From Mobula hypostoma (taxonomy: Eukaryota): 64,000 nucleotides of DNA. The DNA is taken from assembly GCF_963921235.1 (NCBI RefSeq), contig NC_086097.1:124560001-124624000 (forward strand), in the 5' to 3' direction. Every line of letters begins with the position of its first letter. Position 1 is the stretch's first letter. This document shows positions 14,271-21,461 of the stretch, one piece after another. A model generated the notes under the pieces. The model was given only the letters and a program-made list of their open reading frames with translations, was not told the DNA's origin and ran no database searches. The translations under genes were made by a program, and so were the position numbers.

Positions 14271-14490
14271 CTGTGAATAATTCAGTCGATAACGACCGTT
14301 AAAATTTTGTCATTACATCAAAAGCTCATTTATGTTTATTTCATAAAGAACTACAGCCACTTAATACAAAATCCACCTCCACTTTTGGTGTATAATAATT
14401 TACCTGCCGGATTGCTGCCATGAAGTACCCAGACGGTGGAGCTGGTTGATAAGGATTGATAACAGGATTTGGAACAGCTCAGACACTCAC

Positions 14491-14676
14491 CATTCTCTGC
14501 ATGTATTGGTTTGCCAGATGAGCTCGTCGTTCTTCTTTGCGTTGAGCCAGAGCAACATACAAAGCTTTAGTGCTAACAATCCGGCCATTCATCTCTGTTA
14601 CAGCCTTGGTAGCTTCCTCTGGTGAAGAGAAACAGACAAATCCAAAGCCTTTACTGCGCCCATGCTCCATCATCAC
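14491..14676 (-). CDS. PABPC1: Exon 8, copy B, predicted to end at new donor ATG|GTGAGT (ancestral end 14404; TGA at 14481-14479)
   Basis: [16 protein letters not shown]...LANQYMQRM; 186 nt, phase 0-0 if the new donor is used. Confidence 0.8.
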
Positions 14677-14981
14677 CTATATAAATAAAGGGAGATATTT
14701 CATTCTGATAAACAACCAGTTTCAATTATTACCTGAACAATACAAAGTTCAACAAACTTGACAATCTCGTGTTTGAAACTTATTGTTTACTTTAAAATGC
14801 CATTTATGTGATGTCCATTCAACAATAGGCCAAAAATTGTTAAGTTCTGATGCCTAAGCAACACATTCAGACAAGATTTTTGTGTTAAGATGCCAATTTA
14901 CCATTAATCTACTTCTACAATTCTGACAAAAAGTTACTTTTCCTCTGACATGGTAATGTATTAGGCACAAAGTAATAATAC

Positions 14982-15077
14982 CTTAGCACTTGTAATTGTA
15001 CCGAACGGTGAAAATTCTTTGCGCAGTCGCTCATCATCAATACCATCATCCAGATTTTTGACATAAAGATTGACCCC
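14982..15077 (-). CDS. PABPC1: Exon 7, copy [33 protein letters not shown]
   Basis: 96 nt, intact borders; canonical PABPC1 sequence. Confidence 0.92.
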
Positions 15078-16544
15078 CTATAATTGAAAAATATCCAAAT
15101 TCAAACTTATATTAAACCATATTTAAACACAAATGTACTTTAAAAATCGTTAAACTGACATACTTCATACAGAAGCAACAGACAGAATTATGCAATCCCT
15201 TAATCAATTCAAAACTCAGTCATCTTTACATATCAACCATGAATGGAGATGGCAACTTAATGGGGAATAGATGATTTGTGAACATCTCCATTACTAGCAG
15301 CAGAGCTGAAACCTGATGATAAAAGCCAAGAAGATAAAATTGCATTTAATAGCATTGTTGATAAGGATACTCCAAGACGACCTTTGAAATGCAGAAACTG
15401 CATTAAACAGCCATTTCAAAACAGCAATTCCAATAATCATTGTAATAACCACGACACTGTCAATGATTTTGTCTGAGAAGACAATTGTAATGCTAAGGTA
15501 ACTGCTCTCTTCATGAAAATAGCACACAGAATCTTATTACATCAACCATAAAGTGAAAATGGGGCTTCCAAAACATGGCCTCTCTTCACTAGTCTTCCAA
15601 TGTTCATCAGAAACTCCGTTCATTTTTTGGTGATCAGCTCTGAAGTGTTCAGAACCACCTGCCAGAGACATTGAGAAGATAATCCATCTAGTCTTCTCCG
15701 GAGTACTCTGCGTCAAATGCCACTCTTCTACCACTATTCACTCCAGGACTTGTTAAGGAGCCAAACACATCCCAGATAAACCACTGAAGACCAACGCTCT
15801 GCAGAATGAGTAATCCTCAATCCCACAGTTCCAAAACAACTAACTCCTGTGTGACTGTAAGGAAAAAGTTAAATGTCTCCTTGGTAAATGCTAAAATAAA
15901 ATGGAAGTCTGTAAGAGAAAATGGTGTTGGCTTGGAGTGGGATTGGGATTGCCCACAGCAATGTTTGAGAAAGTTAAGAGAGTACAAGTCTATGGCCATA
16001 ATAGTGGAAGATGGTGAAAAGTGTATTTTTCCCATAGAAAGGCAAGGGTCATTGTACAGAGGCAGGTACCAAATGCATGGAGAAGTATCAGTGTAAGTGG
16101 TTTTGAAGGGTATAAAAAGGGGTACCTTCTTGGTGCGAAGAGAGAGTTTTGTCCTAGATCACGGCTGACCATGAGTGCTGAGATAGGGAATGGTACATCA
16201 AGCGAGTCGGAGTACGTAGAATTGGAGTTAGACTGAGATTTTTGAGATAGAGAGAAAGGGAGGGAGAGAGGGGAGTCTGTGTGGAAATATTCCACAGATC
16301 AGCTCATTCCGAGGATGATAAGTATTATTTTGATTTCTATATTGCTACTATTTACTGCCGTAGAGATTTATTTTTACTTTTGTTTTGCATTTGTGCTAGT
16401 TCTAATAAATTGTGAATATGTGCGTCACCTCCTTTGTTTGCAAATCCATGCACGTATACCCCGAGCTGAACCAGAAGAGAACACGTAACAAATCTCAAAA
16501 TAATTTTCATTTACAAATCCACACTATGAGCAGGATTCAGCATA

Positions 16545-19846: not shown

Positions 19847-19936
19847 GTTGTGGTCTGACACTTTGGGCAGCCCATCGAGCGCTGGGTCGAAGCTGTGCAA
19901 GCTGTCTGTTGGGTAATTTGCAGCACGGTTCTGAGC
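19847..19936 (-). CDS. PABPC1: Exon 9, copy A, frameshifted but symmetric: AQNRAANYPTDSLHSFDPALDGLPKVSDHN (possible optional exon)
   Basis: 90 nt, ag/gtaagt intact, no stop in the shifted frame. Confidence 0.6.
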
Positions 19937-19948
19937 CTGTGAATAATT

Positions 19949-21067
19949 ATATATAACCATATAACAATTACAGCACGGAAACAGGCCATCTTGGCTCTTC
20001 TAGTCCATGCCGAACACTTACTCTCACCTAGTCCCACCAGGTAACATTCTAGTAAATCTTCTCTGTACTCTCTCTATTTTGTTGACATCTTTCCTATAAT
20101 TCGGTGACCAAAACTGTACACAATACTCCAAATTTGGCCTCACCAATGCCTTGTACAATTTCAACATTACATCCCAATTCCTATACTCAATGCTCTGATT
20201 TATAAAGGCCAGCATACCAAAAGCTTTCTTCACCACCCTATCCACATGAGATTTCACCTTCAGGGAACTATGCACCATTATTCCTAGATCCCTCTGTTCT
20301 ACTGCATTCTTCAATGCCCTACCATTTGCCATGTATGTCCTATTTTGATAAGTCCTACCAAAATGAAACACCTCACATTTACCAGAATTAAACTCCATCT
20401 GCCATCTTTCAGCCCACTCTTCTAACCGGCCTAAATCTTTCTGCAAGCTTTGAAAACCTACTTCATTATCCACAACTCCACCTATCTTAGTATCATCTGC
20501 ATACTTACTCACTCAATTTACCAGCCCATCATCCAGATCATTAATATATATGACAAACAACATTGGACCCAGTACAGATCCCTGAGGCACATCACTAGAC
20601 ACCGGCCTCCAATCTGACAAACAGTTATCCACCACCACCCTCTGGCGTCTCCCATCCAGCCACTGCTGAATCCATTTTACTACTTCAATATTAATACCTA
20701 ACCAACCTTCCCTATGGGACCTTGTCAAAGGCCTTACTGAAGTCCATATAGACAGCATCCATCGCTTTACCCTCATCAACTTTCCTCGTAACCTCTTCAA
20801 AAAATTCAATACGATTTGTCAAACGTGACCTTCCACGCACAAATCCATGTTGACTGTTCCTAATCAGACCGTCTATCCAGATAATTATATATACCATCCC
20901 TAAGAATACTTTCCATCAATTTACCCACCACTGACGTCAAACTCACAGGCCGATAATTGCTAGGTTTACTCTCAGAACCCTTTTTAAACAATGGAACAAC
21001 ATGAGCAATCCTCTGGCACCATGCCCGTTTCTAATGACTTTTGAAATATTTCTGTCAGAGCCCCTGA
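19949..21067 (-). mobile_element. CR1 LINE (RT region, internally deleted) in intron 8 of copy A
   Basis: [42 protein letters not shown]; uninterrupted site gaataatt|cagtcgat in copy B. Confidence 0.95.
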
Positions 21068-21275
21068 CAGTCGATAACGACCGTTAAAATATTGTGATTA
21101 TGTCAAAAGCTCATTTATGTTTATTTCATAAAGAACTACAGCCACTTAATACAAAATCCACCTCCACTTTTGGTGTATAATAATTTACCTGCCGGATTGC
21201 TGCCATGAAGTACCCAGACGGTGGAGCTGGTTGATAAGGATTGATAACAGGATTTGGAACAGCTCAGACACTCAC

Positions 21276-21461
21276 CATTCTCTGCATGTATTGCTTTGCC
21301 AGATGAGCTCGTCGTTCTTCTTTGCGTTGAGCCAGAGCAACATACAAAGCTTTAGTGCTAACAATCCGGCCATTCATCTCTGTTATAGCCTTGGTAGCTT
21401 CCTCTGGTGAAGAGAAACAGACAAATCCAAAGCCTTTACTATGCCCATGCTCCATCATCAC
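21276..21461 (-). CDS. PABPC1: Exon 8, copy A, predicted to end at new donor ATG|GTGAGT (ancestral end 21189; TGA at 21266-21264)
   Basis: [16 protein letters not shown]...LAKQYMQRM; 186 nt. Confidence 0.8.

Follow-up and report, generated by a model that had tools for sequence, protein, structure and literature searches.

A probable new splice donor in the RRM4 repeats of a predicted PABP-like gene in devil rays and stingrays

Partial intronisation by a new 5' splice site and the formation of chimeric genes at tandem-duplication junctions are general mechanisms, and PABPC4L and PABPC5 are PABPC paralogues that lack the MLLE domain and keep four different RRMs. For PABPC1, sections of PMC10546976 assign the binding of poly(A) and AU-rich RNA to RRM3-4 and that of eIF4G to RRM2, describe a contact between the linker and a neighbour's RRM1, and name PAIPs, eRF3 and PAN3 as partners of the MLLE. 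Parts of a recent preprint (bioRxiv 10.64898/2026.06.05.728833) report that RRM4 and its RNP2 tyrosine are required for human cell growth, that RRM4 is essential in PABPC1 with its own role unclear, and that the RRM4s of PABPC4L and PABPC5 did not rescue growth. neuPABP/PABPC1L2 is described in the same sections of PMC10546976 as a lineage-restricted, shortened PABPC without eIF4G binding; neuPABP has two RRMs and a unique N-terminal domain, has been tested, and is proposed to repress translation.

The locus described here lies in a window of 64,000 nucleotides (the whole stretch of DNA analysed) from the devil ray Mobula hypostoma. Both of the general mechanisms above occur together in it, and it is the new donor that delimits each repeat of the amplified domain. 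Its RRM4, helix and linker derive from a parent PABPC1 gene, pabpc1b, with the same exon borders, and each RRM4 copy in M. hypostoma differs from PABPC1 at 3-10 of 94 residues. Unlike PABPC1, the ray gene lacks RRM1-3 and the MLLE, carries RRM4 three times (copies A, B and C), and has a new donor, start and C-terminus; of the canonical PABPC features, the four RRMs and the MLLE are absent and the proline-rich linker is present. The missing MLLE is shared with PABPC4L and PABPC5, from which the ray gene differs in that its RRM4s remain close to those of PABPC1. Like neuPABP, the ray gene lacks the eIF4G-binding surface, its RRM2 being absent, but it is not a member of that family: it has 2-3 RRM4 copies and a linker, arose by segmental duplication, and has a function predicted by analogy. 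The features of the locus (Table 1) are numbered after the 14 coding exons of pabpc1b.

Table 1. Positions of the features of the locus, in window coordinates
Feature	Position	Strand	Remark
snx31 exon 1 (ATG lost), 2 and 5 copies	~104369, ~104206, ~67087		beyond window
snx31 exon 6 copy, aligned part	44479..44559	-	
snx31 exon 7 copy	40948..41039	-	last recognisable snx31 exon; candidate non-coding 5' exon
Duplication junction zone	24203..37145	.	holds later LTR element 27095-33135
pabpc1b exon 6 remnant	24118..24235	-	behind new acceptor
Start codons in exon 6 remnant	24189; 24147		24189: ATG (gaaATGg), TAA after 10 codons; 24147: RefSeq start MKQ (cagATGa)
Copy A exon 7	21768..21863	-	RRM4 first half
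Copy A exon 8	21276..21461	-	shortened to 186 nt by new donor; exon end 21276
New donor GTGAGT, copy A	21270..21275	-	C>T from GCGAGT; TGA 21266-21264
Former exon 8 remainder, copy A	21189..21275	-	87 nt with TGA, to old donor (21189); intron in RefSeq models
Copy A exon 9	19847..19936	-	90 nt (parent 91), phase 0-0; RefSeq cassette
Copy B exon 7	14982..15077	-	0/96 differences vs parent
Copy B exon 8, shortened	14491..14676	-	exon end 14491
New donor GTGAGT, copy B	14485..14490	-	TGA 14481-14479; old donor 14404
Copy B exon 9	14181..14270	-	dead donor ATAAGT; in 0/3 M. hypostoma proteins
Copy C exon 7	9361..9456	-	
Copy C exon 8	8770..9054	-	full length 285 nt, 12-nt in-frame insertion, no donor
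Linker exons	3556..8636	-	9 (8636-8546), 10 (8415-8305), 11 (6788-6646), 12 (3646-3556)
Region lacking ~1.2 kb of parent	3162..3674	-	exons 13-14 (MLLE)
Last exon (non-coding in parent)	1750..2247	-	13 new C-terminal residues + stop

Read on the minus strand, copies A and B carry CAGAGAATG followed directly across the exon border by GTGAGTGTCTGA at a shared donor site, and the TGA occupies intron positions +10 to +12. Because the parent pabpc1b in the same genome reads ATG GCGAGT GTC AGA here, GTGAGT can be traced to one C>T CpG transition and the TGA to one A>T change. Copy C reads ATG GCG AAT GTC AGA and, with GCGAAT, has no donor. A preliminary description of this DNA, made from its letters, had read the three copies in this way, placed the donor in phase 0 at 9 nt ahead of the stop, and noted that the last copy alone lacks it; each reading is correct to the letter, and the intact parent gene itself displays the ancestral GCGAGT that it had proposed. 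The 3.5-Gb genome contains exactly two copies of the 23-mer that holds donor and stop. The new site, ATG/GTGAGT, has GT at +1/+2 and matches the U2-type 5' splice site consensus, and the old donor, CAG/GTAAAT, is intact in both copies. That the first outdoes the second, as had been claimed for its intronic part, agrees with a crude ViennaRNA duplex with the U1 5' end (new site -11.1, old donor -8.3, parent site -6.7, copy C site -1.5 kcal/mol). GTRAGT is found 47 times on the minus strand of the window (0.73 per kb); two sites in parent exon 8 lie one step from it, and the sole phase-0 one is the CpG of the new donor. The motif by itself is therefore weak evidence, and the case for donor use rests on the RefSeq models.

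In those models every upstream RRM4 ends at the new donor (YMQRM), in 10 of 10 proteins and at 16 of 16 junctions from four rays. The best homologue of exon 8 is the RefSeq M. hypostoma 'PABP1-like' protein P0001 (four accessions), which 13 window exons reproduce exactly when the new donors are used; an ORF-based annotation had been expected to call A and B pseudo-exons, and RefSeq instead already uses the donor. The relatives of P0001 are models from M. birostris, Hemitrygon akajei and Hypanus sabinus, and three species have three isoforms each. In parts of the description of the RefSeq pipeline, isoform richness is said to track evidence support, and models to mix RNA evidence with ab initio calls (PMC12605758). 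Models that are partly ab initio can favour a donor that avoids a stop. We consider it very probable that copies A and B are spliced at GTGAGT. RefSeq already has a model of the gene, and the gain of a splice site is by itself an ordinary event.

A genome search with exon 8 gave six matches: copies A, B and C, the pabpc1b copy, and two distant paralogues. The parent pabpc1b is intact (631 aa) and lies ~110 kb off, its exon 8 match ~127 kb from copy C. Homology to it begins within exon 6 (24202), and in the locus pabpc1b exons 6-12 and 15 come after decayed 5' exons of snx31. Collinear alignment over 340 kb delimits a tandem duplication of 105-130 kb whose unit runs from pabpc1b exon 6 (139405) into an snx31 intron (~37146) and recurs between 24202 and ~-68600; the unit is collinear and both breakpoints are inside genes. 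The sequence shows that the tandem duplication fused the 5' half of snx31 with the 3' half of pabpc1b, that exons 13-14 have been lost by deletion, and that exons 7-9 are present in triplicate. The name snx31 was assigned from Pfam matches and likeness to retrieved proteins. Downstream is a complete snx31, of which 12 exons were found, and the upstream copy retains exons 1, 2, 5, 6 and 7 with the ATG lost; no copies of exons 3-4 were found in the upstream half. The collinear alignment and these exon remnants place the RRM4 gene at the duplication junction, behind the decayed 5' half of snx31, which may supply its promoter and 5' UTR. SNX31 is tissue-restricted in mammals. Neither snx31 start has a CpG island that would mark the promoter. 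An snx31-PABP fusion protein was considered and rejected: the ATG is gone, exons 3-4 were not found, and the exon 7 copy joined to the next exon reads AGG TGA, a stop.

The snx31 copies contain tracts of 97-99% identity amid 75-90% (43543-44598 in the window, 91125-94894 and 108556-111481 beyond it), one of them just upstream of exon 1; these are likely products of recent gene conversion. Within the duplication junction is an LTR retrotransposon (27095-33135, minus strand) with LTRs 93% identical. It shares the orientation of the exon 6 remnant, 3 kb upstream of which it lies, and by eye its reverse transcriptase comes after an integrase-like part. The LTR is a candidate alternative promoter. 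A long tract rich in G/C homopolymers beside one LTR (32246-32605) may be a weak spot of the assembly. At the other end of the gene, AATAAA occurs at 1824 and 1750 in the last exon, and a two-copy tandem repeat of 147 nt, 80% identical, sits just downstream of these poly(A) signals (1422-1715).

Use of the new donors would remove the 87 nt that hold the stop and leave open a frame for a predicted protein of 514 aa, which is disabled only via the old donors. We lean towards this explanation as a whole, and likewise think it somewhat probable that a functional protein is made from the locus. The predicted protein comprises three RRM4-plus-helix units and a PABP linker. Pfam finds three RRMs, all RRM4-derived, with no match to PF00658 (MLLE), and the window contains no RRM1-3 exons. 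A structure model (mean pLDDT 61.8 overall, mostly 80-90 in the domains) has three RRMs, each followed by a helix that in B stops at the donor; the helix is predicted at H213-227 and the exon ends at M228, in keeping with the earlier suggestion that each repeat is trimmed to RRM plus helix. The suggested linker of 17 residues holds for B to C, against natural linkers of 9, 15 and 25, but not for most routes out of A: past that copy, 8 of 10 models enter exon 9, giving 47 residues in Mobula, and 2 of 10 go directly to the next RRM. The proline-rich linker differs from the parent at 15 of 169 residues.

We propose that transcription would probably start from the copied snx31 promoter and that the RRM4 protein would bind A- and AU-rich RNA. 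Without recruitment of eIF4G or of MLLE partners, it would be a competitor of PABPC1 and would lower the translation of the RNAs it binds. In other words, since an RRM4-only protein would bind RNA and not these factors, it would work like the repressor neuPABP. In Mobula the ancestral start (MVE) is closed by a TAA, which leaves an upstream ORF of 10 codons. The strong-context ATG is thus followed by a TAA 12 nt before a weak-context start; the models of both Mobula species begin at the latter, 14 codons later, and the dasyatid models begin at the first ATG.

Several features of the sequence bear on whether this reading frame is under selection. Exons 7-12 of copy C are free of stops, and all 3 of their indels preserve the frame, compared with 10 of the 40 short indels in introns; the frame survived in 7 of 5000 neutral simulations, a figure that overstates the case since gene conversion can preserve frames without selection. 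RNP1 and RNP2 vary at 0 of 14 positions in 10 RRM4 copies, compared with 24 of 80 elsewhere (Fisher p 0.018). Against the parent, pN is 0.051 and pS 0.046 in the RRM of copy C, 0.040 and 0.041 in its linker, and 0.051 and 0.092 in copy A. Divergence in the bypassed 87 nt is below that of introns (4/87 vs 11.5%, P 0.02), and A and B show 0/87 differences there (P 0.012). Equal pN and pS, the upstream ORF of Mobula, and the under-diverged 87 nt all count against function. The donor might indeed be used in a transcribed but decaying duplicate, its frame kept by conversion from pabpc1b and by luck, with little or no useful protein. We regard this as rather unlikely: the equality of pN and pS, the Mobula upstream ORF, the decay of the snx31 half, and the conversion tracts of 97-99% identity together with the parent-identical exon B7 would all be expected of such a duplicate, yet the frames are open in four species of two families, all 3 exon indels of copy C are in frame, exon 9 has been mended in two different ways, and the RNP motifs are invariant.

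Copy B resembles C in intron 6 (3/221 differences) and A in exon 8 (4/186 differences, then none over the bypassed stretch), and it appears to have been made by one unequal crossover between A and C. Given this pattern, the donor and stop in B were inherited from A; independent origins in the two copies were rejected on the shared A-like exon 8, and A and B count as one event. The dasyatid models have two RRM4 copies and the Mobula models three, consistent with unequal crossover. Even without the new donor, exons 7 and 8 (369 nt together) keep the frame, and it is the addition of the 91-nt exon 9 that breaks the frame. For this reason the simpler order is probably donor first and stop later. 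The preliminary description had implied the reverse, a stop that came first and a donor then selected as its rescue, which we judge improbable: the two changes do lie 8 nt apart in both A and B, but A and B record one event, the harmful A>T would have had to persist until the rescue, and a CpG transition is frequent and here frame-neutral. Its statement that the donor hides the stop stands as a description of the present state, not of the simpler history.

Hypothetically, then, an internal duplication in a stingray ancestor would have produced copies A and C, a CpG transition in A would have created the donor, and the stop would have arisen afterwards in the bypassed stretch. Exon 9 would have acquired a length divisible by three independently in Mobula and in dasyatids, and an unequal crossover would then have produced copy B. 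Exon A9 carries a 1-nt deletion in Mobula (91 to 90 nt); the dasyatid models keep the old exon 9 frame five codons further, over 23 codons, and these protein models suggest that their frame fix differs from that of Mobula. Exon B7 is identical to parent exon 7 across a 122-nt run barely longer than the exon. Since M. birostris carries A-type sequence at this exon, B7 was likely converted from the parent, and may reflect short DNA conversion or mRNA-templated repair.

RNA contigs were drawn from 4 of 24 listed runs and compared with window positions 8200-24400. They are mostly parent transcripts and repeats, and among the 15 of 491 joints listed none is A/B-specific at 21276, 14491, 21189 or 14404, nor is any of the 24 loose ends listed at these four donor positions. 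One run gave unique intronic contigs with 0 differences at a depth of 3-9, which may be DNA. If the old donors were used, the product would end at 107 or 231 aa. In copy A the stop of the 107-aa product lies 75 nt before the junction, and the NMD rule asks for 50-55 nt between the two; the old-donor transcript is a predicted NMD substrate. That the donor is an annotation convenience, and that cells mostly use the old donor, for an NMD target of 107 aa, or skip A and B, for a single-RRM protein of 296 aa, is highly doubtful, for although the old donor is intact, the 87-nt stretch under-diverged, exon 6 spliced to C7 in frame (296 aa), and the 15 joints free of a split read at 21276 or 14491, the same exon end recurs in four separately annotated genomes with two different acceptors, the new site pairs more strongly with U1, and the RNP motifs of A and B are intact. 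A short-protein search for ORFs spanning the junctions found none with a junction among the best 120 of 353. A processed copy of the spliced form was also sought and rejected: a lone 17-mer match is chance, and an exon 8-to-9 pattern search gave 0 matches.

With parent and copy side by side, each step of a gene's birth is readable here, from the duplication, the probable capture of a promoter and the loss of domains to the splice site gained by one base change, the mended frames, the unequal crossover and the conversion. What is predicted is a protein of the stingray lineage without the parts that normally stimulate translation; as a natural RRM4-only multimer, predicted in at least four rays, it offers a test of RRM4 binding and function without RRM1-2 and the MLLE. 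Among the literature searched, mostly at the level of titles and listings, no description of the ray RRM4-repeat gene was found, and neither PABP nor SNX31 is mentioned in the main text of a Mobula genome preprint. Among the 120 of 1470 matches listed, the gene is absent from skates, sawfish and sharks, a weak negative. A degraded PABP1-like model from Mustelus asterias (P0338, two RRM matches, no MLLE) has no tandem RRM4 and was treated as separate.

Tandem RRM4-type domains occur in models from lampreys (the P0006 cluster and P0344-P0347, four species), oysters (P0005, P0077) and an electric fish (P0002), and those of lampreys and oysters, like the ray gene, have no MLLE match. Their junction sequences are different from those of rays, which in these database models points to apparently separate origins, and it is possible that the tandem RRM4 architecture evolved repeatedly. 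We tentatively suggest that the stingray and devil-ray gene joins an snx31 promoter to a PABP of RRM4 repeats and linker alone, its repeat unit cut by a single donor of CpG origin, which acts as a tissue-restricted, natural dominant-negative, and that lampreys and oysters arrived independently at the same architecture. A further PABP-like model, P0009, also has tandem RRM4-type domains.
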